DNA of 64,000 nt from Magnetococcales bacterium (GTDB taxonomy: Bacteria; Pseudomonadota; Alphaproteobacteria; UBA2136). Location: NCBI GenBank assembly GCA_002689455.1, contig NZGE01000033.1, positions 16,926 to 80,925 on the forward strand, in the 5' to 3' direction. The notes below the pieces were generated by a model. The model did not search any database, was not told where the DNA came from, and saw only the letters and a list, made by a program, of their open reading frames with translations. Every line of letters begins with the position of its first letter. Position 1 is the first letter of the stretch. Of the stretch, positions 8,152 to 37,938 are shown piece after piece. The position numbers and the translations under genes were made by a program.

Positions 8152-9603
8152 TTAAATTCTACCTTTTTTAGCATTTTCTTCAGCCTTAAGGCGAGCTGCT
8201 TCATTTTCAGCTTCAATTTTATCTGCTTTTTCACCATCAACCAAAAGCGTCCAAGGGCTTCCATCATGACGCAATTCAAACCCACTTAACAGTACCATAT
8301 GAATATCCCTTGTTGGATCCACACGAACAAATGGAACAACACGGTTTGAACGCTCCTCAAGATAATCCCTTAATGATCCCATCATCCCCGAAATACCTGC
8401 TGCCATTTCAGCTTGAACCGCACTACCAGTTAAGTTTGTTGCCGTCCCACCTTCACTGGTTGTCTCTGAAAACTGATTTTCACGCACAATTTCAGCTGTT
8501 CCCGCCGCAAAATCAGCCAATAAAGCCGCTGCAATACGTGAAGCATCACCTTCATAAAACACACCTGGCACACCAACAATGCCATCATTTGCATCAACCA
8601 CATAACCACTTAAGCTATATGTTACAGCACCTGCATCTGGATAAACACATGTCATACGACTTGGTTTACCAATGGCACGCTCTGTAGAAATTTGCCCTTC
8701 AAACTCAACAAATGCAATACAACCATCTAAAGAAACTGTAGAGTTCATCGCTGTTTTATAACTACCCGTCAAACGCACCAACGCTGGTACAGAACCACCT
8801 ACAAGCGCATCAAAACCGTTTAACAAAGTCCCTTTAACAAACCCTAAAGGCGGCACAAAAGGTTGAGGTGTTTTTTCTACGTAACGACCGCCACTTGCTG
8901 ATTGAAGCACCTTTGAACCTGGTGCACTATTAAAATTTAGCAATGCTTGGTCGGGGTTTGCACTCATCCCCGAACTCCCTGCTCGCAGCGTTGTTTGGCT
9001 GATACGTGCCTTTTTCTTTTGGCGAACAACTGTTTTCTCATCCATACCACCCAGTGCTTGCTGGCGACGACCTTGCTCTTCAACAGCACGTGCTTGATCC
9101 ACAAGCCTGTTGATTTCTGCACGTTGCTCTTGGTTTGACCTTTCAAATGTACGTATTTGTTGATTAAATGTTTCGATCATCTGTTGCATTTGTTGCTGCT
9201 GTTCAGTAACCGCATCCTTAATAGAAGATACATTTTCAAGTTCTGTTTTTACATTATCCACTAAAGAACTTTTAAGCTCAGCAAGTTCTTTACGTTGCTG
9301 TGTATAGAAACCTCTTTGTAAAGACTCCCTCGAAGGATCTACAGCCTCAAACGAGCCTTGACCCCCTTCTACATCTTTTTGCAATTGCCTTTGTGAAACC
9401 TTCACATTCCCTTCAGCAGGTTGCTGGGCAGCAGGTTTCTTGACAGGAGTTTCACCCCCACCTGAGACCAACATAAATAAGAAGAAGACAACAACAGCCC
9501 CAATACCTATTTGAGCATTTTTAGGCAGCGCCTTAAACTTTTCAATAAGTTCCTTTAACTTATCTTCCCCGGACGAAACTGGTACTTGATTATTATTTTC
9601 CAT
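8152..9603 (-). CDS. traB: F-type T4SS TraB (VirB10/TrbI family)
   Basis: 483 aa. N-terminal transmembrane segment (IGIGAVVVFFLFMLV), a Gln-rich coiled-coil linker, and a C-terminal beta-rich VirB10-like domain. F TraB is 475 aa. Confidence 0.7.
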   Translation of the reverse strand: MENNNQVPVSSGEDKLKELIEKFKALPKNAQIGIGAVVVFFLFMLVSGGGETPVKKPAAQQPAEGNVKVSQRQLQKDVEGGQGSFEAVDPSRESLQRGFYTQQRKELAELKSSLVDNVKTELENVSSIKDAVTEQQQQMQQMIETFNQQIRTFERSNQEQRAEINRLVDQARAVEEQGRRQQALGGMDEKTVVRQKKKARISQTTLRAGSSGMSANPDQALLNFNSAPGSKVLQSASGGRYVEKTPQPFVPPLGFVKGTLLNGFDALVGGSVPALVRLTGSYKTAMNSTVSLDGCIAFVEFEGQISTERAIGKPSRMTCVYPDAGAVTYSLSGYVVDANDGIVGVPGVFYEGDASRIAAALLADFAAGTAEIVRENQFSETTSEGGTATNLTGSAVQAEMAAGISGMMGSLRDYLEERSNRVVPFVRVDPTRDIHMVLLSGFELRHDGSPWTLLVDGEKADKIEAENEAARLKAEENAKKGRI

Positions 9604-9924
9604 TTAATCCAAACGCTTATTTATAGTTGTTGTCGCATGCAACTGTAAAGTTACAAATATCCACCAAACAAGATAGCGAATTCTGTCATTCAACGCAATG
9701 GTTACATATAAACAACTCACCATATCGCATATAATGTGTGCAACATTTAAACAACAAACCATTAAAAATGCTTTAAAATAATTAAAAAAGTCACTTTTCC
9801 CTTGAATATTCGCACCTGCGACATGATAATTACCTTAAGGTGTGTAATATATCCAAGTAAAAGTCATGAAAATGATTATTTAATTAGGAATATATTTGAA
9901 ATTTAAGTAAGAGCAAGAGGTTAT
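9604..9924. promoter_or_regulatory. Divergent promoter region (traB leftward, traG-like rightward)
   Basis: 320-bp AT-rich intergenic region between divergent operon starts. It contains one copy of the 20-bp repeat tgaaaatgattatttaatta at 9867-9886. Confidence 0.4.
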
Positions 9925-12900
9925 ATGGCGTTTCCAGACTATGGTCCACTCCCAGAAATTAGTCAATTTACACAAGATGGATTTCTTCAAGGGTCGTTTT
10001 TATTCAGTCTATTCGCAGGTGAGGTAGATAATACGCTTGCATTGCATTATGTTGGGCTCACATTTGCTTTAATCGGTGCATTAGCTATTATTTTTATGAA
10101 AAAATTCCATAACATCACAACAATTGGTGCCTGGACGTTTCTATTAATTATTCTCCTTATTGGCCCTAAAGGGGCTAGTATCAATGCTTCTACAGGCGAA
10201 AGAGCAAGTAATGTGTTCTTCACAAGTGTCCCTACCAACACAAACAAAAACCCTAGCGGTATGTCGTATGCAAATGCTTTTACACCGCAAGCACTTGCAA
10301 TTGATATTATGAGCAAAATCCACAAAGCTATATATGTTGGCTTTTTTGATATTTCCGACCCAACAAACCCAAGAACACGTAATTTAGTTGAAGATTTAAC
10401 GACACAGCAGACAAACAGCCGTGATGGATCTTTAAATGAAAGACCTGATATTAAAGTGGAAATTTCTGCTTACACACATTTTTGTGGGAAACCTTCAAAT
10501 TTACCTCTTCCAATATACAATGAACTTTACACAACCAACATTAATACAGTTAACGAAGAGCTTAAAGATGCGGGCTTACCTTCAAAACTTAAGCTAGGGT
10601 TGTATCAACTCGACAAGGAGACCACATACGCGCTACAAAAAAGACTGTTCCGTGCAAGTTCCTTACCAGATTTTATGACGCAATATACTGCTGCATATTC
10701 TAATCAACCTGGGCAGTTTTACCCACCCTTTGCCATTGCATACCAAGAGTATAGCGACTTAGAAAAAGTTATGGAAAACTCGGGCCTACCAAACGATCTT
10801 GTTAAAACCTTCATGACATTTGGTTTTGATGAAAACGACGGGGAGGAACTTGCAGACTCCGAAAATGACTTTTTCGATTTTTTAACAACAAAAGAACGCT
10901 TGATCGATAGCATAGGCGGCACGCTAAAACCTATTGGTAGCTCAGCCATTACCAAGGAAACGCCGGCTTTTGCTGCTTTTATCGAAGACAATGATGCCTT
11001 ATCTGATATTGACAAAGGCAAAAGCCCGCGTACAGGTGAAAGATTTAAAGACGCTGACCCAATTGAAAAAAGGCTAAATAAAGTGCTAGAAGCATCCATC
11101 ATCCCAAGAGAAAAAGGACTTATTAAAGACGATCCTTGGGTGAATGTTGTAGATGAAGGGGGAAGGCACGCAACACCTATCAGCTTAGGTTTCATTACAC
11201 CAAACTTAAAAGAGGTGTATCAATCAAGAATTCATGAAGCTGACGACAGATTAAGCAACTTAGCGGACAAACCAATTCTAAACGTTGTATCATCATGCTC
11301 ACAACTACACCAACTCATTCACAGTCATGTTCGAGATGCGCTCGTTTATCAAAAAATGTGGCCAACTCATGGCGGCGCACCAACAAGCGGAATTGCACTT
11401 ACACAATCATTCGGCCTACAACTGATGGCCATTGGGACAAACAAGAATGAATATTTAAGTTACCCATATCCACCTGCTGACAATTTAAGCTCTGCACAAG
11501 AAAGCATAAACCAGTTAGTTCAAACAAATGCGCTTGCTTTGTCATACAATGACCCAACAAGCAATGAATTTAAAAACCTTTTAAATCCAGGACATGACCC
11601 TCTTGTAAGATTGTACGCGTCTGAATCATTAAGAAAGTCACTTTTAGCAAGTACCATTGAATCAGGTATAAACAACTCCTCTATTATGTATTCAATGACA
11701 TCTAACGAAGGTGCAGCTGCACGAAAAGTTAGAAACGAACTAACAAACCAATCAGGAGACCTTGCTGATTCCATGAGATTCCAAGCCTCAGGTGCAAGTA
11801 TCGTTAAAAGTATGCCAAGCATTGGATCTGGTCTTTTCCAGGATTTTGCCAACATTGTTGCGGACATTGGATTGAAAATATCCGCACAATTTGAAGGTAT
11901 TGGGGCTATTGCTTATATTCGATTCTTACAACTTATGATATCTATAGCATTATTCTTTATCATCATGTGTACACCAATTCTTTACATGATGGGTGTACTG
12001 GTGCCTGCACACGCACCTGGTGTTATTGCCACAAGTATTTTAGGTATTGTAGCCCTTAAAGCTATACCTATCGGCTTTACACTTGTAGATGCTATCATGT
12101 CCAATGCAATGAGTAGTTATGATATATTGAACTTCAATGAAACTGACCTAGCCCTAATGCTTTACGTAACAGCCACAGCATACACATCTATTACTATGGT
12201 TACATTATTCCTGTTATTTAAAGCTGGTGATACGCAATCCGTTATTGGCCAAATGGCAGCTCTTGATAACAAAGCAAACGAAATTGCAGATCAAGCCGCT
12301 ACAGTTGTTAAAGGCTTAGCCGTTGCGGCTGGTGCAGCTGTAACAGCAGGTGTTGGTGGTGCTATCGGCGGTGGTATTGCGGCAAAAGCTGCAGGCGCAG
12401 GTGCAAAAGGAATGTTAAAACAAGGCGCAACAACCGCACTCACACAAAGTGGTGAAGTTTTTGGTAAACGAGGCCTTCAGTCTATCCCTGGTGCGGGCGG
12501 ATTCGCAGGAGAAATTTTAAACTCTTACCGCGAAGGTAAAGGTCAAGGTACCGTTATGACTGAAATCGATAAAAACAATCTAGACATTGACCGTAAAGTT
12601 GCAGAAATAGATAAGGAACTAGCAAACCCTAACCTTGATGCAAACAGAAGAGCATCTCTAGAATCTGAACGTAAGAGAGAGTTAAGCGAACGTAAATCTT
12701 ACAATGAACACATGCAAGGCTATGCTGACGCTCAAGCTGAAGATAAATACAGAAGCCGCGTACAAGCTGCACGTAAAAACTGGGCAGCTGATAACGCCGA
12801 AGATGGATTTAAGAAATCGGCAGAATCTCAAGGCATGACAAATTACGAAGCAAGACGTAAGGCTATGAATGCTGAAGCCTCTGCTGGCTTAAACAGTACA

Positions 12901-13671
12901 TTAGGGTCAGCAGTTACAGCTCAAAAACTTGAAATGCAGGGTGATGTTCAAATTGGTGATGCAAACATTTCACCGCAAGCCGCGCAATCCATTGCACAAG
13001 GTATGGGTAAGGCCAACCTTATTACGTCACAAGGGTCTCCTGAACGTATTGCAGCACTTGAAAAAAGCGCACTTAACAAAGAAATGGATGCCGGTACAAA
13101 TGATATTTTAAATAACCAAGTTGATGGCCCGGGTCGCAAACCTATATTTAAACCATTTGATCGTGTTATGACCGATAAAAACGGCGACCCACTCCTTGAT
13201 AAGGATGGCCAACCAATCAAAGAAACAGTCACACAAGACCCATTATATGACCAAGGTGCAAGTGAAGTTAAATCCAAAATCCGTAAGGATCCTGAGTTGA
13301 AACATGTGGATTCTGCAACATTTACAAAAGTAACAGAGCGCGTTGCTGCTGAAGAGCTTGCAAAACATTATAAAGGCGAACTTAAAATGAACCTAGACAG
13401 CCGTGCGAGTGATATTTTAGGATATGAAAATCTAACCCAAAGAGCCTCTTCAGGTAAAGCTAAAGACCTATGGGTTACACCAAACCAGCAAGGCTATGAA
13501 GAACTTCGTAAAATTACTGGCACAGGTGAAGGTGAAGCTGTATCTCTCTTCAATATGCACATGGCAAGAAGCAACTCTGTAGCAACAAGAGCTAAAAACC
13601 TTGCAAAAGAGCATCAAGAGAAATTAGATGATGCAGAAAAATCTGTTGGCTTAAAACAACGTAACTCATAA
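9925..13671 (+). CDS. traG: TraG_F-like mating-pair stabilisation / pilus assembly protein (giant variant)
   Basis: 1248 aa. The topology resembles F TraG: two N-terminal transmembrane segments, a large loop of about 550 aa, a cluster of 4-5 transmembrane helices (aa about 640-780), and a long C-terminal domain with a Gly/Ala-rich stretch and coiled coil. Called from topology only. Confidence 0.4.
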   Translation: MAFPDYGPLPEISQFTQDGFLQGSFLFSLFAGEVDNTLALHYVGLTFALIGALAIIFMKKFHNITTIGAWTFLLIILLIGPKGASINASTGERASNVFFTSVPTNTNKNPSGMSYANAFTPQALAIDIMSKIHKAIYVGFFDISDPTNPRTRNLVEDLTTQQTNSRDGSLNERPDIKVEISAYTHFCGKPSNLPLPIYNELYTTNINTVNEELKDAGLPSKLKLGLYQLDKETTYALQKRLFRASSLPDFMTQYTAAYSNQPGQFYPPFAIAYQEYSDLEKVMENSGLPNDLVKTFMTFGFDENDGEELADSENDFFDFLTTKERLIDSIGGTLKPIGSSAITKETPAFAAFIEDNDALSDIDKGKSPRTGERFKDADPIEKRLNKVLEASIIPREKGLIKDDPWVNVVDEGGRHATPISLGFITPNLKEVYQSRIHEADDRLSNLADKPILNVVSSCSQLHQLIHSHVRDALVYQKMWPTHGGAPTSGIALTQSFGLQLMAIGTNKNEYLSYPYPPADNLSSAQESINQLVQTNALALSYNDPTSNEFKNLLNPGHDPLVRLYASESLRKSLLASTIESGINNSSIMYSMTSNEGAAARKVRNELTNQSGDLADSMRFQASGASIVKSMPSIGSGLFQDFANIVADIGLKISAQFEGIGAIAYIRFLQLMISIALFFIIMCTPILYMMGVLVPAHAPGVIATSILGIVALKAIPIGFTLVDAIMSNAMSSYDILNFNETDLALMLYVTATAYTSITMVTLFLLFKAGDTQSVIGQMAALDNKANEIADQAATVVKGLAVAAGAAVTAGVGGAIGGGIAAKAAGAGAKGMLKQGATTALTQSGEVFGKRGLQSIPGAGGFAGEILNSYREGKGQGTVMTEIDKNNLDIDRKVAEIDKELANPNLDANRRASLESERKRELSERKSYNEHMQGYADAQAEDKYRSRVQAARKNWAADNAEDGFKKSAESQGMTNYEARRKAMNAEASAGLNSTLGSAVTAQKLEMQGDVQIGDANISPQAAQSIAQGMGKANLITSQGSPERIAALEKSALNKEMDAGTNDILNNQVDGPGRKPIFKPFDRVMTDKNGDPLLDKDGQPIKETVTQDPLYDQGASEVKSKIRKDPELKHVDSATFTKVTERVAAEELAKHYKGELKMNLDSRASDILGYENLTQRASSGKAKDLWVTPNQQGYEELRKITGTGEGEAVSLFNMHMARSNSVATRAKNLAKEHQEKLDDAEKSVGLKQRNS

Positions 13672-13699: not shown

Positions 13700-15604
13700 A
13701 TGAGTGATAACACAAGAACCAATAATAAGCGTGCGCCGTGGGTACGCATGGCGTCTGCCTATTACAGATCAGAAAATGGCGAAAACCCTAAATTAGCAGA
13801 TGCTAATTTATATACTTTCGACCCTATATTAGATGAGCTTATTGAAGAACATCTAATTGATTATGATCTACCGATAACACCTTGCATAGACGGTCACAAT
13901 GTCATGACCACAACAAGTACTCCTTCATTTTTAAATACAAACGTAAAAGTACCTTTATCACCAAACTTTGTACGAGATTTAGCTGGCCGTATTATTTACA
14001 TTGGCTACGGTCCTGAAATAAAAAAAACAGATCAATGGGACAACAACCGCCATGTCACATTTCCTAAAAATTGCCGCGTTGTAACAAATGACATTGATGG
14101 AAGTGAATATATTGAAAACATTTTTCTGACAAGGTTTCGCACACTGGATGTAAGCATTTTTTACGAAGATGATGCCCATCAAAAGCTTTTTTGCTATAAA
14201 AATGAAAACCATTACCCTTACAAGCTTCGCTTAGATACTTTTTATCAAGACGGTTGGCGCCTTCCCCAAACCAATATGCTTTATGCTCGTAAAAGCGTTG
14301 AACAATCAAAGGCAAACACAATTGGGCAAAAGTTTATTGACGAATGGGAAAACTCAAAAGACATTCTTTCATACCCTGAATTTCTTGAAAAAAATGGTGG
14401 TGATGAATGGCTTAATAAATTATTCCAAGCCGGTTGTACGATCATTCCTACACATGAAGCTTATAATAGCTACTATATTGTAAACAGCGAGTATGAAATT
14501 GAAAAAAGACGATCGGGTGTCGCCGTTCAAGGACTTCACCAAATCCTAGATGAAAAAGCGAGCAGCGAACCTAAAGGAACAATTATTGAGGTAATTAGAC
14601 CTGGATACATTACATCCACACATATTGAACCAGCACAAGTCATTGTAAGTGATGGCATGCGCTACGATGCCAGTAAAAAAGCCTATCCACTCCCAATGCA
14701 CCCAGACTTACGTTTACCACATCAACGAACTCAATGCGTTTGGGGTGCAACATGGCTTCCGACTCACCCAGCACACTTTGATGCACCTGCCATTTGGGGG
14801 TGGGATATGGCTACAGGGCACTTCTTACAAATGACCGGACCTTTATGGGATCCTTTACATTATTATTATGAGAGTACACCTTTAGTCATACGTGCATTTA
14901 AAGACCCTTCACCAACAAGCAAACACATTGCAAAAGTCCCTGAAGATATGAAGGATAGATTTTATCCAGCAACATCCATTAAAGGTTTTGATATGATAAG
15001 TTACAACACCTTAAAAATGAGACTGGAAAAAGACATTCACCCTAAATCTGCCATTGTTAGAGTAAATGATGCCGACATAAGTTCTAGTTTCGGGTATCAC
15101 CCACTCCCTTATAATTATGAATATGAACTTAATCACATTTGGTTTCCTGAGTTAATGCCATCCAATAGAACACCTTTAATGCCTCAAAACATAAAAACTG
15201 TTCCTGTTATTGAGTCATATTTAACGCCAGATTATTATTTAGCAAATACGCCAGATGAAAACGAAGAAGAGCGGTTAATAAAATATAACTTACTCAGCAA
15301 TACTAGCTCTCCTTTATTAAAAAAATACCCTCAATTAAATAGGTACCTTTCAGAGTTTGATGCAGACAAAGCCAAAGAAGCTGGTTTAATCATTTTAAAT
15401 ATACCTAGCAGCCTCATAGAAGACGTTTCAACACTCTATGCGAGTGATGACATTGACAACATCATAAAAGCAACCGAAATGCCCTTTTATCGTGCTGTAA
15501 AAGAAATGAGAATTAAATCTTTAAAAGAGTTAAATAAACATATTGAAGATTACAATAGCGACATTCAAAAGTTTCTATACAATTACTGGAAGGCATCATC
15601 GTAA
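13700..15604 (+). CDS. Hypothetical soluble protein (634 aa)
   Basis: Intact ORF 28 nt after the traG-like stop. No signal peptide, transmembrane segment or ATPase motif. Confidence 0.35.
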   Translation: MSDNTRTNNKRAPWVRMASAYYRSENGENPKLADANLYTFDPILDELIEEHLIDYDLPITPCIDGHNVMTTTSTPSFLNTNVKVPLSPNFVRDLAGRIIYIGYGPEIKKTDQWDNNRHVTFPKNCRVVTNDIDGSEYIENIFLTRFRTLDVSIFYEDDAHQKLFCYKNENHYPYKLRLDTFYQDGWRLPQTNMLYARKSVEQSKANTIGQKFIDEWENSKDILSYPEFLEKNGGDEWLNKLFQAGCTIIPTHEAYNSYYIVNSEYEIEKRRSGVAVQGLHQILDEKASSEPKGTIIEVIRPGYITSTHIEPAQVIVSDGMRYDASKKAYPLPMHPDLRLPHQRTQCVWGATWLPTHPAHFDAPAIWGWDMATGHFLQMTGPLWDPLHYYYESTPLVIRAFKDPSPTSKHIAKVPEDMKDRFYPATSIKGFDMISYNTLKMRLEKDIHPKSAIVRVNDADISSSFGYHPLPYNYEYELNHIWFPELMPSNRTPLMPQNIKTVPVIESYLTPDYYLANTPDENEEERLIKYNLLSNTSSPLLKKYPQLNRYLSEFDADKAKEAGLIILNIPSSLIEDVSTLYASDDIDNIIKATEMPFYRAVKEMRIKSLKELNKHIEDYNSDIQKFLYNYWKASS

Positions 15605-16235: not shown

Positions 16236-17984
16236 TCAGTTAGACCCTCTAGAGTTGTATAGTTTAGATATCATTTGTGCATAATCTTTTTGTTGTAGTC
16301 TCTTTCTTTCGAAACTATCCAACTTACGCTTATATGAACCAATCAAAGTATCTAGAGCACCTCTAACATATTGAGGTGGCGCATTGCGATCAGTTGACAC
16401 AATGGCACTTAAATCTAGCTGTGCAAGCTCTAGTCTATGGATTAAAAAACTTAAAATATTATGTGTTACCGCATAAGCCACTTGCGTTCTATAGCCAAGT
16501 AAAACAGCATCCGCAGACCCGCTATCAGCATCATCTGTTAACGCAATATATTCAGCCAGTGTTAGCCTAAGGTCATTTCGCAATGAACATTTAACGCCAT
16601 ACTCAACAACATTTCTAAAGTTAGGGATCACAATATTATTCACATTGGAATCACTATTATCAGAATGCCCTGCTCCAAAATCAACATGCAAGTTATCACC
16701 ATAGATTGTCCCTGCATTTAGAGGAGGTGGAAGAAATGGTGCTGTTGTTGTAATATCGTATGCAGCAACCATAGGTGTGAAATTTTCCCACTCAACTATT
16801 CCTGAACCATCAACTGGTGCAGAGCAATTAACATAATTTCTATATGCATCCTCTAAAAATGGAGGATCAATTAAAACACCAGGACCATCATCAACACCTA
16901 AGTCTGTAGATGCAGCCATAACATCATCATAATCAGCGATGGTTTCAACATGGCCACCATCAACGTTTTCACCATCAATTGCAATTTGATAAGCAAGATT
17001 CCTATCCGTTGCTTTCACCAATGCCTTTGCAAAACCTTGAGCGTAATTTGTAAAACCTTCTGAAAGACCGAAAGCGAGATCAAAAATTTGAATAGGCGAA
17101 ATAGATTCAGGCGATACCCTCACCTCACTAGAGGCTACAATAGCTGAATCTAAAGATGCAGACTCACTTCCGTCCGCGCAATTTGTGTAACTTGCCGTGC
17201 TAGAGTTTGTACACCAGCGAATATTTGGCAACAATGCTAGAAGTGTGCAATCACGCCCTGTTGTGGTTTGAATACAAGCACTTGTATTTTGCAACGCAGA
17301 ATATAGCGTCCCATTCCATTTTGGAGAATCCAGAACCTGCTCAGTGGCCTCATACAAACTTTTATTTAATGTTTCACCTGTTTGTTCAGTGTAATCAGGA
17401 GATGACAAACAGAACTTAAAAGCTTGCGCTGTTACATCAGGCCCAGTTGAACCTTCTTGCTCCATATATGATTGAATGCAATTTTGAACTGCCTGCCACT
17501 GAGCTGGCGCCAGCTCATCTTTATATTCCATAGCGGCACACCTGTCCTGCAGTTCACGCACACGTGAGCCTGCAAAATTTTCTAAACCATTAAAAATCTG
17601 AGCAACGGCTGGTGAATTAAACAAAGTGGTAACCATATAATTAGAAACAGATGTGTTAAAATATTCATTAAGCGTTGAATCGTCTGTATTTAGAATAGTT
17701 TTACGGGCTTCATGAGTGTCTAATGCCCCACAACCAAGCGTACCCAACACTCTTTCATCACTCAAAGTAACGCCTGAAGCTGATAAATCATTTGTTCGGT
17801 TTGAAGTAATCGGTCTTTTATGTGTCGGTACAAACCCAACACTTCCCGCATTATTTAACCTTAATTCTGGGTTGGTCTCTACTGCATTTGAAAGGTGTGA
17901 AAAACCCATTAAAGTGCAAAAAACACCTGTTAAAACAAGAACTTTGCTTTTAATCATAAACTTCACCTCTTCGTTTGCAAACAC
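16236..17984 (-). CDS. Cys-rich secreted protein, possible TraN/TraH/TraU-class F-type outer-membrane/periplasmic component
   Basis: 582 aa. The likely signal peptide starts at the internal Met (MIKSKVLVLTGVFCTLMGFSHLSNA). About 11 Cys are spread through the mature part. Confidence 0.3.
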   Translation of the reverse strand: MFANEEVKFMIKSKVLVLTGVFCTLMGFSHLSNAVETNPELRLNNAGSVGFVPTHKRPITSNRTNDLSASGVTLSDERVLGTLGCGALDTHEARKTILNTDDSTLNEYFNTSVSNYMVTTLFNSPAVAQIFNGLENFAGSRVRELQDRCAAMEYKDELAPAQWQAVQNCIQSYMEQEGSTGPDVTAQAFKFCLSSPDYTEQTGETLNKSLYEATEQVLDSPKWNGTLYSALQNTSACIQTTTGRDCTLLALLPNIRWCTNSSTASYTNCADGSESASLDSAIVASSEVRVSPESISPIQIFDLAFGLSEGFTNYAQGFAKALVKATDRNLAYQIAIDGENVDGGHVETIADYDDVMAASTDLGVDDGPGVLIDPPFLEDAYRNYVNCSAPVDGSGIVEWENFTPMVAAYDITTTAPFLPPPLNAGTIYGDNLHVDFGAGHSDNSDSNVNNIVIPNFRNVVEYGVKCSLRNDLRLTLAEYIALTDDADSGSADAVLLGYRTQVAYAVTHNILSFLIHRLELAQLDLSAIVSTDRNAPPQYVRGALDTLIGSYKRKLDSFERKRLQQKDYAQMISKLYNSRGSN

Positions 17985-18054: not shown

Positions 18055-20205
18055 TTAAGTGTTTTTAGCGTTTGAACGTGCTCTGACCACTTCATCTTTT
18101 GGTGTTTGGTTATAAACTTCCACACGCAGTGCATTTAAATTCTTATCCGCTAAGTCTACAAGCATCGCCACTTCAATAGATTGTTTACGGCGTAATTTCA
18201 AACGGCGAAGGTCTTTTAAGGCATATTCTAATGCGTGAGCTGCACCTGTTAAGCGCTCATTTAAAGCATAAAAGGCTTTAAGCTCCTTCAATTCATCTTC
18301 AATCACTTTCGGGCTACCAAAACGCATCAATTCTGCTGCTTCAAGTTCCTTCTTCAAGGCATCAATTTCACTTGTTGCGGCATCTAGTTCTTCTTTTTGG
18401 TTGGCAATCACCGACTCACGGCGCTGTGTCCAAATTTCAGAATCTTTTAAATCACGTTCGTAGTCTTCAATACGTTTTTTCAAAGCTTGAACCACACGGG
18501 CGCTTGAAGCGTCCACAACAGCCGATTGCATTGCCGTTGTCACTACAGGCTCTACATCTTTGTTTGGTGCATGTTTTGCAACAAATGCATCAATTTTATC
18601 TTCGACAGCTGCTTGGTGCAGGTCATTAAACTTACTGCCCTTCGACCATGCAATGCCCGCACGGCGGATAAAGTCTGCCATTTTAATTTGAACAGGCTCG
18701 GACAAGTCTGCACAAGTGCTTGCATTGGTTACCTGAATAAGACCATCTTCAAACAATGCACGTAACTTAGGACAAGCCTTATCTTTAACCTTTGCATAAA
18801 CCAAAACGTTTGTACGGCTTGTGCCTACACAGTCAGCAATTTTTTGCTGTGACAAACCTATATCAGAAAGTGCTGATATAGCGTAATACAAATCAATTTT
18901 TGATGGTTTAAGCGTACGCATATTAATGGCAACACGTAAAATTTTAGCATCTGTTTCAGATGGGATTTTGTGAACAATACACATATAGTCACTTCGTCCC
19001 TGCTCTTTCGCAAGTTCTAGACGACGCTCACCATCAATAATAAAGCCTTCTTCATTAATAAGCGCTGGATATTGCCCATCATCGAACTCGTGTGAAGCAG
19101 CATATGTGTTAAATTGATCTTCCGATTCAGGCGAATGAAAATCGAAGTTCTCAAAAGGAATTAAACTGTCGATTGAACGCAATTCAACGCCTTGAAGTGG
19201 ATATTTTTTAACTTCTTCACTTGTAAACACATCCTGATATACAGGCGACTTTGCTTTTGCTTGCGCTTTTGGCTTTTGCAACTTTTTAGTTTCAGACTTC
19301 GCAGAAACCTCTAAAGCAATCGTTTCATAATCCTTTTCAATGGTTGGGTAAGCTTCTTTAAAGGTGTCAACCACATGGCTTGCCTTTTCAACTGCAATGT
19401 TTTTCAAAGCTTTCAAGACAAGCCTATTCACACGTTTTTCATTAAACTTTAAACGTTCAAAATCACGTGAAACAGAAACATGGTCACCATCAATAATACG
19501 TTGTACATAAAAAGCATCCATAAGCTCATTCATCACCTGTGAAGCACGGGAGTCTGTCACACCGAAGTGGTAAGCGATTTCTTGGAAATTATAAACACCG
19601 CCTACTTTAACATGTAACAAGGCTGCTTTTTTCTTTTCATCCGTTTCTTTAGCAACAAGGTCATTTAATACACGTTCAAAGAAACTATCACGCATAATTT
19701 TCAAAGCAATTTCTCCTTTATTTTCATCACGCGCTTGCGATGCTTCACCTGCAAGCATTTCCTGCATTGGGCTTTCATGGTCAAGGTGCTGAACAAGCAA
19801 TGGCGGGTCTGAACGAAAACGTTCCTTTTCATCATCGCCTAATTTTTCTGTAAAGGCTTGGCGGGCTTTATACTCGGGGTTGCCGTTGCGAATTTCCATA
19901 GCGCAGCTTTCCATGCGGCTACCAAAAAATGTTGTAAATAATACAGAAACAATTGAGCCATCTGCTTTTTCGTAAACAGGGCTATAGTCACGTAAGCATT
20001 TTAATAATACTTCGTAACCTTCTTGGAAAAGCTCTTCAACATCTAGGTGGTAATAACGTGCAATTTTAGCAACAGCTTGACGGCGAGAATCAAGGAAACC
20101 TACAGCATCTTCTAGTGCCTGCTTATACCCCTCATCTTCCAATTTCATGGCATCCAACTTTTTCTGCGTTGGCATTTTTGTCAGTTTTTCTTTTTTAGAA
20201 ACCAC
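18055..20205 (-). CDS. Sigma-70 (region 2 + region 4)-like N-terminal domain fused to a ParB/Spo0J-like domain, with a coiled-coil C-terminus
   Basis: aa about 60-100, LFQEGYEVLLKCLRDYSP...FTTFFGSRMESCAMEI, resembles sigma70 region 2 (DLIQEGNIGLMKAVEKFDP...FSTYATWWIRQAI). FQEIAYHFGVTDSRASQVMNELM resembles the region 4 HTH. aa about 330-470 has the ParB N-terminal motif (FIIDGERR) and a helix-turn-helix (QQKIADCVGTSRTNV). 716 aa. Confidence 0.5.
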   Translation of the reverse strand: MVSKKEKLTKMPTQKKLDAMKLEDEGYKQALEDAVGFLDSRRQAVAKIARYYHLDVEELFQEGYEVLLKCLRDYSPVYEKADGSIVSVLFTTFFGSRMESCAMEIRNGNPEYKARQAFTEKLGDDEKERFRSDPPLLVQHLDHESPMQEMLAGEASQARDENKGEIALKIMRDSFFERVLNDLVAKETDEKKKAALLHVKVGGVYNFQEIAYHFGVTDSRASQVMNELMDAFYVQRIIDGDHVSVSRDFERLKFNEKRVNRLVLKALKNIAVEKASHVVDTFKEAYPTIEKDYETIALEVSAKSETKKLQKPKAQAKAKSPVYQDVFTSEEVKKYPLQGVELRSIDSLIPFENFDFHSPESEDQFNTYAASHEFDDGQYPALINEEGFIIDGERRLELAKEQGRSDYMCIVHKIPSETDAKILRVAINMRTLKPSKIDLYYAISALSDIGLSQQKIADCVGTSRTNVLVYAKVKDKACPKLRALFEDGLIQVTNASTCADLSEPVQIKMADFIRRAGIAWSKGSKFNDLHQAAVEDKIDAFVAKHAPNKDVEPVVTTAMQSAVVDASSARVVQALKKRIEDYERDLKDSEIWTQRRESVIANQKEELDAATSEIDALKKELEAAELMRFGSPKVIEDELKELKAFYALNERLTGAAHALEYALKDLRRLKLRRKQSIEVAMLVDLADKNLNALRVEVYNQTPKDEVVRARSNAKNT

Positions 20206-20341
20206 AAGTTCACCCTTTTGATTTACTCAACTTTTCATAGAATTCAACGTATATATTCTAAACACTTCTAAATATTATGCGAGAAAAATAGTAACTTATC
20301 AATGAATCCCAAATAAAGAGTGTCAGAAATTTGCAACTGAA

Positions 20342-22060
20342 TTACTTAAAGGCTTTTTGTAGAATTTGAACATAACGGCTTGGTTTGTCATACCACGAAA
20401 TTGACAAACTTCCTGAAGCACGTGTGATGCCCATATAAAATAAACGTCTATCATGGCTTTCATCTACTGGTAACACACGGTAGCCCGCAAAAGGGTAAAC
20501 CTTTTCATTTGCAAGCGGCATAAACACAGCGTCAAATTCCAAATTACGCATATCACGCACAGGACCTAACAAGATACGGTCCAGCATGTTCGGTTCCTTG
20601 CCCTGTCTAATTTGTGGTAAAACCTCTTTTAAAGGCCCTTTAAGATTTAAAAGGGTATCTACAGCAATTAAGGCGTTAAACTTATCTTCATAATTCATAC
20701 GCTCAATCATATCAAAAGAAGCAGCCTTAAAAACCTCCTGCGCAGATGATGACCTGTTTTTGAGCAAGCAATAATAACCCAGCAACTGCCTTTGTATAGC
20801 AATAAAGTCCCCAAGGGCTGAACTTGGAAGCTGTAAGTCTTTTGGCAACTTTGCCCCATCTGCTAGCCAATTATGTGCATGCAAACCACCTTTAAACAAC
20901 ATTTCAATAAGCTGTTGATTTAAACCATAGCCAACCAACACATTCCGCAAATGAACATCGGACGCTTGATTCATTAATAAGCACAACAGGTCAATAACCA
21001 TAATTGCACCTGGTATTTCCCAAATCTTATGTGCAAAGCTTGAATGTTCAATACCATTTTTTTCAAATATTTTTTGAATTCGTAAAGCGTCCCAATCGGT
21101 TCTTGCAATCACACCTATGCGTTTATCAGAAGGAATAGCTTTAATTTTCTCTGCCAATATAAGAAGCTCTTCCTCTGCCGAGCTGTAAGCATCAAAAGAT
21201 ACTTCAATATTTTTTTTCGGGTTAAAATAAACCTCTTTTTCAAACCGGTCAGGTACTTTGCCTACAACCGTTAAAGCTGTTTGACCAAGCTTTTCAGATA
21301 ATCTGAAACATTTTGTGAGGGTAAAAGCTTTAACCCCTTGCTGTTCTTTAAAGTCCTTTAAAGCGGCTGAACCTAAAGCACCGTCGCGCTTAAAAACACA
21401 CAGGTCATCATCTCCAAAAGCAGAAACTTGCGCACCTGCTTTCATATGCTCTAGCAACCACAAGAACTGAATATGTGTAATATCTTGGAAATTATCCACA
21501 AACACGTAACGCATTGGCACTAATTTCATTTCACCTTGACGCATACCTACGATATGCCTTCTTAACACATCGTAACGGTCCATTTCGCAGTAACCTTTGT
21601 ATGCCATAAAAAGGTCGAAATGTTTTGCAGTTTCTGCTGGTTTACGTGCCATACTTTTAAAGTTACGTACAATGTGTTCAGCTTCAACTGCACTGCCTTT
21701 AAAGTCCACTTCACGCATGGCTTGCCTTAAAGAGCGACGCGCCTGCTTATCTGTTGCGAATACAAGCTCGGTCTCAACATCTTTTTCCATTTGATTTTGA
21801 GCAAATATACGGCAGGGTCCAATGTTAATTTGTTCAGCAACTTCTAATCCCAAGCGACCTTTCAATTTATGAAAAAGTATTTGCCAAGAATAATATGTGA
21901 AGGCAATTAAATAAATTTCTTGAGGGTTCACACCCGATTCAATTAAATGAGCAATACGTTCAACAAGTGTATATGTTTTTCCTGTTCCAGGTGCACCAAA
22001 AACAAGGCAAGAACCTTGGTACTTTGTAATATTTAACTGTGTTTTAGACATATCTCCCAT
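20342..22060 (-). CDS. UvrD/Rep-family superfamily-1 DNA helicase (short form)
   Basis: 572 aa. N-terminal Walker A FGAPGTGKTYT and a motif II-like VFVDNFQDIT (DExx box). Confidence 0.6.
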   Translation of the reverse strand: MGDMSKTQLNITKYQGSCLVFGAPGTGKTYTLVERIAHLIESGVNPQEIYLIAFTYYSWQILFHKLKGRLGLEVAEQINIGPCRIFAQNQMEKDVETELVFATDKQARRSLRQAMREVDFKGSAVEAEHIVRNFKSMARKPAETAKHFDLFMAYKGYCEMDRYDVLRRHIVGMRQGEMKLVPMRYVFVDNFQDITHIQFLWLLEHMKAGAQVSAFGDDDLCVFKRDGALGSAALKDFKEQQGVKAFTLTKCFRLSEKLGQTALTVVGKVPDRFEKEVYFNPKKNIEVSFDAYSSAEEELLILAEKIKAIPSDKRIGVIARTDWDALRIQKIFEKNGIEHSSFAHKIWEIPGAIMVIDLLCLLMNQASDVHLRNVLVGYGLNQQLIEMLFKGGLHAHNWLADGAKLPKDLQLPSSALGDFIAIQRQLLGYYCLLKNRSSSAQEVFKAASFDMIERMNYEDKFNALIAVDTLLNLKGPLKEVLPQIRQGKEPNMLDRILLGPVRDMRNLEFDAVFMPLANEKVYPFAGYRVLPVDESHDRRLFYMGITRASGSLSISWYDKPSRYVQILQKAFK

Positions 22061-22199: not shown

Positions 22200-22919
22200 T
22201 TAACGTTCAAACAATAAGAACATAACACCTTGATCAGAAGGCTTACCCTTGCCTGCAAGACGCATGTTTTCCATAGCAGCCTTACGCAACACACCCCACT
22301 CACCTGTTTTAGGAATGGAAATAGCAGGGATGTTAACCTCATTCGCTGTTGGGTATTCATTTTGAACATGAACCACTAAGCCTGTATACTTAGGTGACTG
22401 CCAAACTTCTGAAAGTTCGAATGTTAAACCTGCACCTGTAAACCAGTTCGGCACCACATATGTTTCGCGAATAACGCCAGGAACATCACGGTCTTCAGCC
22501 ATAGCACGAATCATATCATTCACATTAAACTGCGCTGCGATTTGGCGTTTTTTAGAATCGATTTTTTGGCCATCCACAATTTCAACAAACTGACGGTATG
22601 GAACATCTGTTGTAAGAACAACAATGTATGTTGTACCCGAAGCACCTGTCATAAACATTCTGGTTGCCATTTTAGGAAGTAATGAACGCATACGGAAAGC
22701 CTTATTCCCATAACCTTCAACAACCAAAATATCAACATAGTCACTGTTTTCAAGTGTAATGTTAACAATTTCCTCAGGGAATTCAACGTGAGAAATATCA
22801 TCCTCATTCAAACCAAGTGTGAGTGTATGTGTTGGGCCACGCCAAACAATTGTATCTGCAAATGATTGACCAGCAAGCACCGTCATCATCATCAAAAAAC
22901 CAAGTACAATTTTTTTCAC
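22200..22919 (-). CDS. traK: F-type T4SS TraK (VirB9-like) periplasmic protein
   Basis: The ORF-track N-terminal extension overlaps traE and is rejected. The probable start is GTG at 22919, giving about 239 aa (F TraK is 242 aa) with a signal peptide KKIVLGFLMMMTVLAGQSFA. Position after traE is canonical. Confidence 0.55.
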   Translation of the reverse strand: MKKIVLGFLMMMTVLAGQSFADTIVWRGPTHTLTLGLNEDDISHVEFPEEIVNITLENSDYVDILVVEGYGNKAFRMRSLLPKMATRMFMTGASGTTYIVVLTTDVPYRQFVEIVDGQKIDSKKRQIAAQFNVNDMIRAMAEDRDVPGVIRETYVVPNWFTGAGLTFELSEVWQSPKYTGLVVHVQNEYPTANEVNIPAISIPKTGEWGVLRKAAMENMRLAGKGKPSDQGVMFLLFER

Positions 22920-22944
22920 TTTTATATTACCTTTTACTAATATA

Positions 22945-23580
22945 CTAACGTAGTTTGCCTGTAAGCTCTGTTTCGTTGTATGAAACAAGTTCAAAACCAA
23001 AAGGGTTTGATTTTGAAATATAGCGTTGTTTAAATTCCATTTTATAACGCATCGGAATAGCTTCCACAACTGTACCTGCAATAATATACTGCCTTGTACC
23101 TTCAATGGTTACAGTTTGTGTTTTACCGCGACCACTAGGCCCCGTATCACCTTCAATTTTAAAAGCTGTTTGATCTGGAATAAATTTTGATGAGCGTTCA
23201 TCCTGAAAAGCTTTTTGAATAAGGTCCTTGAAGTAGCTTTGCGCAACCGCCAACATATCATCATTGAAAAACTGTTGAATTTCACGGTATTGATTTTCAA
23301 GGTTCTGATATGTATAGTTATTCAAACTATTTACAATTAAGTAAGAAAGCTCTTTAAGCATAATTTCAGAGTTAGCAGGTGTGTAAAACCCAGCAACGCT
23401 TCCAGGAACGACATAAACCTGAGCTTGCGCACGCAATTTTTCATATTGTGCATTTAAACGTCTGTTTTCTGAAATAACTTGATACGTCCAAAAGAAAACG
23501 ATAATCAATAACATTAATAAAACACCAGCGATACGCTGCCATTTATCAACCACACTTCCTGCTCTTGCTATAAAATCCAT
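22945..23580 (-). CDS. traE: F-type T4SS TraE (VirB8-like bitopic inner-membrane protein)
   Basis: 211 aa with a single N-terminal transmembrane segment (IAGVLLMLLIIVFFWTY). Lies between traL and traK. Confidence 0.6.
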   Translation of the reverse strand: MDFIARAGSVVDKWQRIAGVLLMLLIIVFFWTYQVISENRRLNAQYEKLRAQAQVYVVPGSVAGFYTPANSEIMLKELSYLIVNSLNNYTYQNLENQYREIQQFFNDDMLAVAQSYFKDLIQKAFQDERSSKFIPDQTAFKIEGDTGPSGRGKTQTVTIEGTRQYIIAGTVVEAIPMRYKMEFKQRYISKSNPFGFELVSYNETELTGKLR

Positions 23581-24011: not shown

Positions 24012-24347
24012 TTATAGGACTTCAGTAGATGCTGTTGCATTACCGTCTGTTGCATCAGCAAAACCAGAACGCATCCATTCGAAGATACCTGGGAAAGCTG
24101 TTACAGCTACACCACCAATCATCACCATGATACCCCAAGATGATTGTTGGATAAGCCACATGTACAGACCAAATAGTGCAATACCTAAACCGATAAGCGT
24201 ACCTAAACTACCTGAAACCATGCCAAGCACACTTGCAAGTAAATCACCACCTGCAGCTGTAGCATCCTGCGCCATTGCCGCTTCCGGTGCCATTGTTAGA
24301 ACTACTGCTAAAACAGCAAAGCTCATAAAAGTTAGAAATTTTTTCAT
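24012..24347 (-). CDS. traA: F-type propilin TraA
   Basis: 111 aa. The leader ends ...APEAAMA. The mature N-terminus QDATAAGGDLLASVLG parallels F-pilin AGSSGQDLMASG, followed by two hydrophobic helices. Confidence 0.7.
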   Translation of the reverse strand: MKKFLTFMSFAVLAVVLTMAPEAAMAQDATAAGGDLLASVLGMVSGSLGTLIGLGIALFGLYMWLIQQSSWGIMVMIGGVAVTAFPGIFEWMRSGFADATDGNATASTEVL

Positions 24348-24514
24348 TTCATTTTCTCCATATATGTACTAAGAGCCGTTGAGCTTGCGCCAGGGACACC
24401 CTTAACCACCCCTTGCCTTTCAAAATAAGGACTTAAACCAAGTATGGTGCATTCATATAAAGTTTTCAACCCTAAAAAACACACCCTCTCAACAAACGGT
24501 TAAAAACAGCCATT

Positions 24515-37827: not shown

Positions 37828-37938
37828 GTTTCCCCCTCACCTATTTTATTATTGTTAGGCGTTTTGCATTTAAAGTTTTTTAACTTTTTAAAATTCATGT
37901 CAGCTTTGTGACAGGAATTTTAAAATTTTAATAAAGAA

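Follow-up and report, generated by a model that had tools for sequence, protein, structure and literature searches.

A gene fusing a sigma-factor-like head to a ParB-type DNA-binding module within a type IV secretion and pilus cluster of a Magnetococcales bacterium

The window analysed here is a stretch of 64,000 nucleotides (nt) from a Magnetococcales bacterium (assembly GCA_002689455.1, contig NZGE01000033.1, positions 16,926 to 80,925 of the forward strand), and all coordinates below count from its first letter. Its minus strand carries at 18055..20205 a gene with a GTG start, encoding a protein of 716 amino acids (aa) in which a sigma-like head is followed by a helical domain, a ParB N-terminal domain with a helix-turn-helix (HTH) and a coiled coil. 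This sigma/ParB gene was defined from the open reading frame (ORF) call, its homologues and an AlphaFold model of the full 716-aa protein (mean predicted local distance difference test score, pLDDT, 79). The ribosome binding site (RBS)-like sequence AAGGGTGA is conserved at 20210-20217, 5 nt upstream of the start. The fusion had been proposed in a sequence-only reading of this DNA, and the strings quoted there are indeed contained in the minus-strand ORF. That reading named a sequencing frameshift joining two adjacent genes as what would speak against it; the ORF was found uninterrupted in more than 120 protein clusters, in independent assemblies and in 31 genomes, and since full-length homologues exist at 41-99% identity, a frameshift or two-gene artefact is excluded.

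The homologue search covered 5.8 billion proteins and returned 141 relatives, of which the best 120 align over 68-100% of the query (nearly all over at least 91%) at 41-99% identity and come only from metagenome-assembled genomes (MAGs) labelled Alphaproteobacteria or 'Proteobacteria'. One genome per species was scanned, which gave 31 loci in 31 MAGs, several of them on contigs of 0.5-1.0 Mb, with one copy of the gene per genome. The full-length architecture was kept in the more than 120 protein clusters as well as in the 31 species-level genomes. Plasmid, phage and viral-contig copies of the protein were searched for and none was found. Residue conservation was counted over 119 family members, to which the counts out of 119 given below refer.

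The head consists of a sigma region 2-like domain (aa ~25-110; 19876..20133, minus strand), delimited by TIGR02937, Sigma70_r2, Foldseek and conservation and interrupted by an 11-residue beta-hairpin insertion (77-87), and of a sigma region 4-like HTH (aa ~175-238; 19492..19683, minus strand), delimited by Sigma70_r4, TIGR02937, FliA/WhiG alignments and conservation. The linker between the two domains has a length of 65-75 residues and includes the invariant motif F130-x2-D-P-P-L-L-V-Q-H-L-D142 (19780..19818, minus strand), L136, L137, V138, H140 and D142 being present in 119/119 members. In the sigma2-like domain Q61-E62, R72-D73, F90.TFFG.R97 and R106-N107 are likewise invariant (119/119), as are F214-GVTDSRASQ-223, N226, L228, DAFY233 and QR236 in the sigma4-like domain. 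The head is thereby the best conserved part of the protein, and both Q61-E62 and the sigma4.2-like helix exceed the ParB boxes in conservation. Segment 135-172 of the linker was modelled at a pLDDT below 50; the invariant 130-142 motif, which lies in a stretch that AlphaFold gives as disordered, looks like a short docking motif for a partner.

The sequence-only reading had noticed a resemblance to sigma-70 regions 2 and 4. The resemblance could be reproduced across the family, and it stayed under every curated cut-off. The sigma70/extracytoplasmic function (ECF) superfamily model TIGR02937 matched 19 of the 21 members scanned (best E=2.2e-9) and FliA/WhiG matched in 11. In the case of the window protein the TIGR02937 match extended over residues 40-229 and profile positions 9-158 of 165 with 24.3 bits (E=2e-5), and the scores of 24.3-27.8 bits are to be set against a cut-off of 42.9. 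When the HTH was removed and the sigma2-only fragments (residues 20-135) were scanned, TIGR02937 still matched in 17 of 19 cases (best E=1.1e-5) and Pfam Sigma70_r2 in 6 of 19 (best 0.025, under the gathering score), and the other recurrent matches were exclusively sigma models. Sigma70_r4 was found in 30/36 members (best 1.8e-4); on the window protein it reached 12.9 bits versus 24.1 required, and generic HTH models gave comparable scores. In a separate AlphaFold model of residues 1-300 (pLDDT 78.7), Foldseek filled some 30 of the 32 highest ranks with sigma chains (sigmaS, sigmaA, sigma70, sigmaB), and the sigma2 domain of SigE was superimposed with a template modelling score of 0.61, a root mean square deviation of 3.7 A and 22% identity. 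An exhaustive HMMER search of 1.84e9 representatives with the head retrieved 15 proteins, all of them family members or fragments, with no sigma factor at E<=1e-3; in this search the head was never seen without the ParB part nor with another partner. The retrieved locus DNA contained no sigma genes. The Q61-E62 pair is presumably the equivalent of sigma70 Q406/E407, which we take, by an unaligned correspondence, to be the pair binding the beta-prime clamp helices, and the positions presumed to correspond to sigma W433/W434 are S/N and R in the sigma/ParB protein. The sigma resemblance is more than chance, yet remote, and we take the head to be a far diverged descendant of a sigma2-linker-sigma4 module. 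Contact with the RNA polymerase core is a candidate function of the head.

A four-helix domain (aa 242-307; 19285..19482, minus strand; AlphaFold secondary structure, pLDDT 81-90) follows the head and has no match to any family. Behind it lie a ParB N-terminal (NTPase-fold) domain at 18901..19200 (profile search, Foldseek and residue statistics) and a ParB/KorB-type HTH DNA-binding domain (aa 436-545; 18571..18900, Spo0J/ParB HTH profile alignment and Foldseek), both on the minus strand. The parB_part model matched the single sequence with E=2.6e-4. A 36-member profile run against the PDB sequences found Spo0J (1vz0) at E=7e-8 and the B. subtilis ParB-CDP structure (6sdk) at 1.1e-7, with further matches to M. 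xanthus ParB, C. crescentus ParB and Noc. Foldseek aligned the AlphaFold model with Noc, ParB, KorB and pNOB8 ParB at E=4e-6 to 2e-4 over ~210 columns, that is, over the N-terminal domain plus the HTH, and the fold matches of the HTH included ParB-parS, Noc-NBS and KorB-OB complexes. The KorB matches were 8qa9 (1.2e-4), 8qa8 and 1r71; the KorB domain of Pfam (PF08535) was found sub-threshold in 7/36 members (best 2.2e-4), and HTH_ParB was sub-threshold likewise. No KorA or IncC homologues were seen. The fold of the ParB N-terminal domain and HTH, including the GERR motif that the sequence-only reading had pointed to, is thus firmly confirmed.

In the nucleotide-binding boxes of this module P380 of Box I was present in 118/119 members. 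Box II (D391-G-E-R-R395) has the GxxR phosphate motif, in the form GERR in the window protein; D391 is invariant, G392 was kept in 119/119, R395 in 118/119, R394 in 97/119 and E393 in 66/119 members. A Box III-like N428-x-R430 follows (N428 118/119, R430 115/119). From this residue pattern of Boxes II and III nucleotide binding by the module appears plausible, and hydrolysis in the manner of ParB doubtful. Domain scans gave no match to the ParB C-terminal dimerisation domain; in its place the AlphaFold model has a long-helix coiled coil (aa 568-715; 18061..18504, minus strand) of two or three long helices (568-629, 632-668 and 673-700), in agreement with the long coiled coil suggested earlier. 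Its residues D588, W592 and R596-E597 are invariant, and on the model it is the presumed dimerisation element instead of the ParB C-domain. No ParA-type or Walker ATPase was found among the scanned window ORFs of at least 120 aa.

Footprint alignment of the DNA upstream of the sigma/ParB gene revealed a conserved box, GTTGCAAATTTCTGACA (20321..20337, minus strand), with a CTGACA core at 20321-20326. Of the related loci (numbered with L) L002, L003 and L006 have an identical box, the L006 protein being only ~52% identical, and L001 has 1 mismatch. A CTGACA or TGTCAG core was present within about 250 nt upstream of the gene in 31/31 loci, the background being 0.37 per kb. Perfect convergent TGTCAG-N-CTGACA pairs were found in 16 loci, compared with 0.69 (maximum 4) in 200 shuffles, and in L007 the arms abut as the 18-bp palindrome TTCCTGACATGTCAGGAA; perfect pairs occurred once per locus in 17 loci, always directly upstream of the sigma/ParB gene. 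The arms are spaced, start to start, by 22-24 bp (11 loci) or 33-35 bp (5 loci). Since these two spacing classes, of 2 or 3 helical turns, differ by one helical turn, they indicate a protein that would be bound to one face of the DNA. A/T tracts form the inner flanks of the arms, and the left arm bears an additional flank, CCACACCCC.

In the distant loci the right arm lies 17 bp upstream of a TGC-[T/C]AnnnT extended -10 element, which itself precedes the ATG by about 40 nt. The right arm is therefore the -35 hexamer of this promoter; it is invariant in 27/27 loci and has C where sigma70 prefers T. The combination of CTGACA with the extended -10 is nearly exclusive to the sigma/ParB gene, which accounts for 10 of the 11 matches in 0.57 Mb. 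In the subclade of the window, where the left arm has degenerated, the box is located 20-40 bp upstream of sigma-70-like promoter candidates. These are CTCGCA-N17-TAGAAT (20255-20283, minus strand), which is conserved in the window and L001-L003, and TTGATA-N17-CATAAT (20274-20302, minus strand), found by promoter scan. Position, orientation and phasing leave little doubt that the CTGACA repeat is a functional element, and since it was found only at the sigma/ParB gene, the most parsimonious candidate for its reader would be the product of this gene.

Several other readings of DNA elements were considered and rejected. GTTGCA was dropped as a special promoter element, as it acts as an ordinary -35-like hexamer without a common -10, and its interpretation as a sigma-54 -24/-12 element was discarded by eye because the spacing is off. 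A Pho box, which consists of direct CTGTCAT repeats, was dismissed by eye since the arms are inverted, and a divergent promoter at the left arm was dismissed in the same manner, there being no -10 on the other strand. The sequence-only reading had also suggested a search for parS-like palindromes, parS itself being a contiguous palindrome of 16 bp. No contiguous palindrome is common to the loci, the CTGACA element being hyphenated and contiguous only in L007. A perfect 18-bp palindrome, TGAGCTGGCGCCAGCTCA (17500-17517), was rejected as a parS-like site since it is unique and absent from all 31 loci; it lies inside a 582-aa gene just downstream of the sigma/ParB gene, where it encodes DELAPAQ. 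Its outer arms, GAGCT..AGCTC, match those of bisS from the integrative and conjugative element (ICE) ICEclc, which may be a coincidence. Similarly, AATACAAGnnCTTGTATT at 17271 was rejected, because a conserved N-T-S/R-A-C-I coding stretch explains its letters and it is absent from the closest relative.

The upstream neighbour of the sigma/ParB gene is a divergent SF1A helicase of the UvrD/Rep/PcrA type (20342..22060, minus strand; Pfam UvrD-helicase 2e-18, UvrD_C; PDB matches Rep/PcrA/UvrD), as had been recognised from the translation. The two genes adjoin in 25/31 loci and the inverted repeat is located exactly between them. The surrounding genes form a divergent F-type type IV secretion system (T4SS), with TraC-F-type (5e-53), TraB (2e-14), TraE and a TraD-like coupling protein, and contiguous with it is a type IV pilus (T4P) set of a PilB-like ATPase (888 aa, with a long N-terminal extension), PilC, secretin and pilins. 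Helicase, sigma/ParB gene and two unknown genes stand between a traA-L-E-K-like and a traB-V-C-like block in an order preserved family-wide, and the matches of the neighbouring genes bear out the position after the traA-L-E-K-like block that had been noted. The T4SS/T4P cluster extends from ~1700 to 48750 of the window (~47 kb), bordered by a PhoH-like gene at one end and by genes for cation efflux, RNase PH, RdgB, HemN, pol III delta and LeuRS at the other. The cluster contains no tRNA, its G+C content is even, and no integrase or relaxase was matched in the window by Pfam, NCBIfam and PDB searches. The housekeeping flanks together with the lack of an integrase, a tRNA and a G+C shift suggest that the cluster is a vertically inherited, lineage-wide chromosomal machine and not a fresh island or ICE. 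The earlier description of the gene as island-specific is not supported, given these features, its presence once per genome and the synteny across the lineage.

Some further observations were made in the cluster. Two large proteins are encoded on the opposite strand inside the T4SS genes, of 1248 aa (9925-13671, plus strand) and of 634 aa (13700-15604, plus strand); they are conserved in 7 and 22 loci, respectively, and gave no Pfam, NCBIfam or PDB-sequence match. A block of ~81 nt (24370-24450, minus strand) lies between the promoter (sigma-70-like TTGAAA-N17-CATACT, 24441-24469) and the RBS of a pilin-like gene (24012-24347), and it surpasses the neighbouring proteins in conservation among the window, L001, L002 and L003. 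Rfam gave no match for it and its predicted structure is weak (14 pairs, 1 compensatory); judged by its conservation it could be a 5' leader with a regulatory role. Conserved blocks were also seen in the divergent intergenic region that separates the traB-like gene (8152-9603) from the gene of the 1248-aa protein. These blocks, at 9661-9698 and 9738-9748 (minus strand), comprise TTGCGT/TTGCAC-N17-TATCTT followed by GTTGGGTGG, plus AAATGTTGCAC, and look like a conserved sigma-70-type promoter and a further site. A 301-aa ORF (22200-23105) overlaps the TraE-like ORF (22945-23580, minus strand) by 160 nt, and the true start of the gene in the TraK position is probably the internal, signal-peptide-like MKKIVLGFLMM... 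start.

Among the known systems, BisD of ICEclc, a CTP clamp of ParB-like type to which an activator domain is added, is loaded at two bisS sites and spreads over ~50 kb; together with BisC it switches on 11 transfer promoters as well as its own expression (PMC12409273, PMC7423338). The sigma/ParB protein resembles it in joining a ParB N-terminal domain and HTH to an extra all-helical effector or dimerisation part, in being encoded inside a transfer gene region of ~50 kb with specific site(s) near its own gene, in the feedback on its own expression that these would allow and in that ParA has no role in activation. The differences are that in BisD the ParB part is N-terminal and the activator domain C-terminal, whereas the sigma-like effector head of the window protein is N-terminal; that BisD requires the separate FlhC-like BisC, while the scanned neighbours in the window include no DUF2857/FlhC-like protein; that BisD keeps ENxxR, whereas Box III of the window protein is without its Glu; and that bisS is a contiguous palindrome with 11-bp arms inside genes, in contrast to the hyphenated repeat at a promoter found here. 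This comparison was made with the published description of BisD. The KorB protein of RK2, a CTP sliding clamp from the ParB family, is a global repressor and acts on distant promoters (PMC11790492). It is likewise a ParB-fold regulator of conjugative-transfer genes with an operator at its own promoter; however, KorB has no sigma-like head and works with KorA/TrbA, 12 OB palindromes and the ParA-type partner IncC, whereas the sigma/ParB protein has one site, no ParA and a coiled-coil C-terminus. Shigella VirB is a ParB-like anti-silencer that depends on CTP and removes H-NS from virS sites (PMC10770331, PMC10653881). It is comparable as a member of the ParB family that has taken on the transcriptional control of a secretion-system regulon, and differs in having no sigma-like domain.

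With the sigma-70 factors of group 4 (ECF, including those with C-terminal extensions) and group 3 the protein shares the order of sigma2-like domain, linker and sigma4-like domain, and sigma factors are both its best-scoring models (TIGR02937, FliA/WhiG, SigH-type) and its best fold matches. A conserved promoter upstream of the own gene is typical of ECF sigmas. The sub-cut-off scores, the hairpin inserted in sigma2 and the 65-75-residue linker with its invariant motif separate it from them, as does the extension of ~480 residues, which is a predicted sequence-specific DNA-binding module of the clamp type; to our knowledge such an extension has not been described for any sigma factor.

The sequence-only reading knew of no such architecture, a statement that needs to be qualified. 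Fusions of the ParB-CTPase fold with Sigma70 Pfam domains in one polypeptide were already catalogued by Kaljevic et al. (2025), whose survey is defined by PF02195 (10.1101/2025.10.10.680097; PMC12704722). The fusion tested there, uvig_297896_22 of a gut phage, has the ParB fold N-terminal with Box II GEHRVRA at ~75-81, and bound ATP, not CTP (10.1101/2025.10.10.680097). Its domain order is opposite to that of the sigma/ParB protein, and identity of the two was rejected, as its first 124 residues share 8/20 positions around Box II (E=0.094) and the sequence is otherwise unrelated. A sigma2+sigma4-like module N-terminal to a complete ParB N-terminal domain and HTH with a coiled coil was not found described in the published literature. 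Precomputed Pfam domains are absent from most members of our family, PF02195 being recorded for only a handful; since most carry no such domain, we infer that a Pfam-based survey of ParB-fold fusions would miss most of them.

Our tentative reading, to which we give not quite an even chance, is that the protein is a dimeric, autoregulated, DNA-bound regulator of the T4SS/T4P cluster, of the KorB/BisD kind, with a sigma-derived head contacting RNA polymerase. The coiled coil would join two protomers, and the protein would bind the CTGACA arms that overlap or flank its -35 and so control its own synthesis. The ParB module, with GxRR kept and the catalytic Glu missing, might bind nucleotide and clamp or spread on the nearby DNA, and the head, with its sigma2-like part, docking linker and sigma4-like part, would be the effector that contacts RNA polymerase, either replacing sigma in the holoenzyme or merely touching the enzyme. 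By analogy with BisD, it would take the role of the BisDact domain plus BisC. Of the three roles guessed from the sequence alone, a KorB-like regulator fits best with the single operator-like site, the T4SS embedding and the KorB fold matches.

Several results weigh against this proposal. No Pfam or NCBIfam sigma model reaches its curated cut-off, the Foldseek E-values of the sigma chains are all at least 0.015, and the family N-terminal profile finds no sigma among the PDB sequences even at E<=10. Comparison with RpoE by hhalign gave E=0.3-0.4 and the HMM tests gave p=0.004-0.1, with a shallow RpoE alignment, as the RpoE search yielded only sequences at least 86% identical. The sigma4.2 positions which we take to be E. 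coli R584/E585/R588 are D/S/S here, so that reading of the -35 by the sigma4-like HTH in the manner of sigma70 is unlikely. In the ParB module the catalytic Glu of Box III is absent, position 427 being L/I/V/M/A in all members; the box is N-x-R and not ENxxR, its Arg standing one residue nearer than in ENxxR, and given this change and the variability of E393 and R394 (66/119 and 97/119), nucleotide binding and clamping are putative. The arm spacing of 2-3 turns is unlike the contiguous parS, OB or bisS palindromes. The CTGACA element came to light post hoc, and at no gene but the sigma/ParB gene itself; because of the former the formal probabilities for the repeat are optimistic. Signs of a regulon were not found: the promoters of pilin and traB are sigma-70-like without CTGACA, and they share no special motif with the promoter of the sigma/ParB gene, so the transcription initiator suggested by the sequence-only reading is possible and gains no positive support. 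A close-spaced CTGACA repeat, TTCCTGTCAcaaagCTGACAtgaa, is present at 37894-37917 (minus strand), ~70 nt upstream of the gene of the PilB-like ATPase; as evidence of a regulon it was rejected, since it is not conserved in the five orthologous loci L032-L036.

The protein might alternatively be a KorB-like repressor only, its head being a helical and HTH domain exapted for contact with DNA or a partner and not with RNA polymerase. The right arm occupies, in most loci, the -35 of an otherwise sigma-70-like extended -10 promoter, which is a classic position for a repressor, and the sub-threshold sigma similarity, the replacement of the presumed -35-reading residues of sigma4.2 and the KorB structures among the fold matches agree with it, as does the autoregulation of KorB through operators at promoters (PMC11790492). 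However, the most conserved part of the protein is the sigma2-like one, which has no DNA-operator role in known proteins, and in the subclade of the window the box stands 20-40 bp upstream of the -35, in an activator-like position. The conservation of the QE pair, presumably the core-binding pair of sigma70, points in the same direction, and we regard repression alone as doubtful, if well worth considering. A bolder version of the RNA polymerase contact is a DNA-entrapped sigma factor, whose ParB-type module would load at the CTGACA repeat, close as a nucleotide-dependent clamp that the coiled coil keeps together, and slide through the ~47-kb cluster, where the sigma2/sigma4 module covalently joined to it would capture core RNA polymerase. 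If this were true, the competence for initiation would be confined in cis to one neighbourhood and not by a promoter consensus, and the absence of a regulon-wide promoter motif would be explained; we hold it to be unlikely.

We give an equally small chance to a DNA-processing factor which, with the UvrD/Rep/PcrA-like helicase, would mark and organise the inverted repeat as an origin of transfer or secretion for the F-type T4SS, comparable to relaxosome accessory proteins or to the ParA/ParB homologues of the gonococcal island. Origin of transfer (oriT) regions typically bring together promoters and inverted repeats in intergenic DNA, and the helicase adjacency in 25/31 loci, the repeat lying exactly between the two genes and the presence of a T4 coupling protein fit such a role. 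Nevertheless, Pfam, NCBIfam and PDB searches turned up no relaxase in the window, the arms consist of 6-bp cores that are separated by 16-29 bp and form no hairpin beside a nic site, and the fixed 17-bp distance from the right arm to the -10 element points to transcription. A partition role was another of the earlier guesses; the protein would then be the classical ParB of some integrated or plasmid-like element, and the repeat would serve as the centromere. The ParB N-terminal domain and HTH fold and a specific site beside the own gene, as with many parS, would suit it; but the scanned ORFs include no ParA or Walker ATPase, a coiled coil replaces the ParB C-terminal dimerisation domain, the repeat is hyphenated and thus unlike parS, and the gene was found in one copy per genome, on large chromosomal contigs and never on a plasmid, phage or viral contig, which makes a partition role very improbable. 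Least credible of all is an artefact of frameshift-fused genes or a chance sigma resemblance: nothing else than the weak individual sigma scores speaks for it, while the ORF is uninterrupted in more than 120 clusters from independent assemblies and sigma models are the sole recurrent matches of the head, even without the HTH.

That CTP clamps of the ParB family regulate the transcription of conjugation genes over long distances is a recent insight (KorB 2025, BisD 2025), and the route of BisD to RNA polymerase involves an uncharacterised activator domain plus BisC. By analogy with these proteins the sigma/ParB protein seems to add a new form to the ParB-clamp regulators known from this recent work, one in which a ParB module fused by nature with a sigma-derived head would link DNA clamp and RNA polymerase directly and in a testable way. 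The CTGACA arms with their helical phasing are a ready-made cis element for biochemical work. The family is also a probable example of how Pfam-based surveys of ParB-fold fusions overlook whole families from uncultured lineages. If it is true that the head forms a holoenzyme, the protein would be the first sigma factor with its own sequence-specific DNA-loading module.

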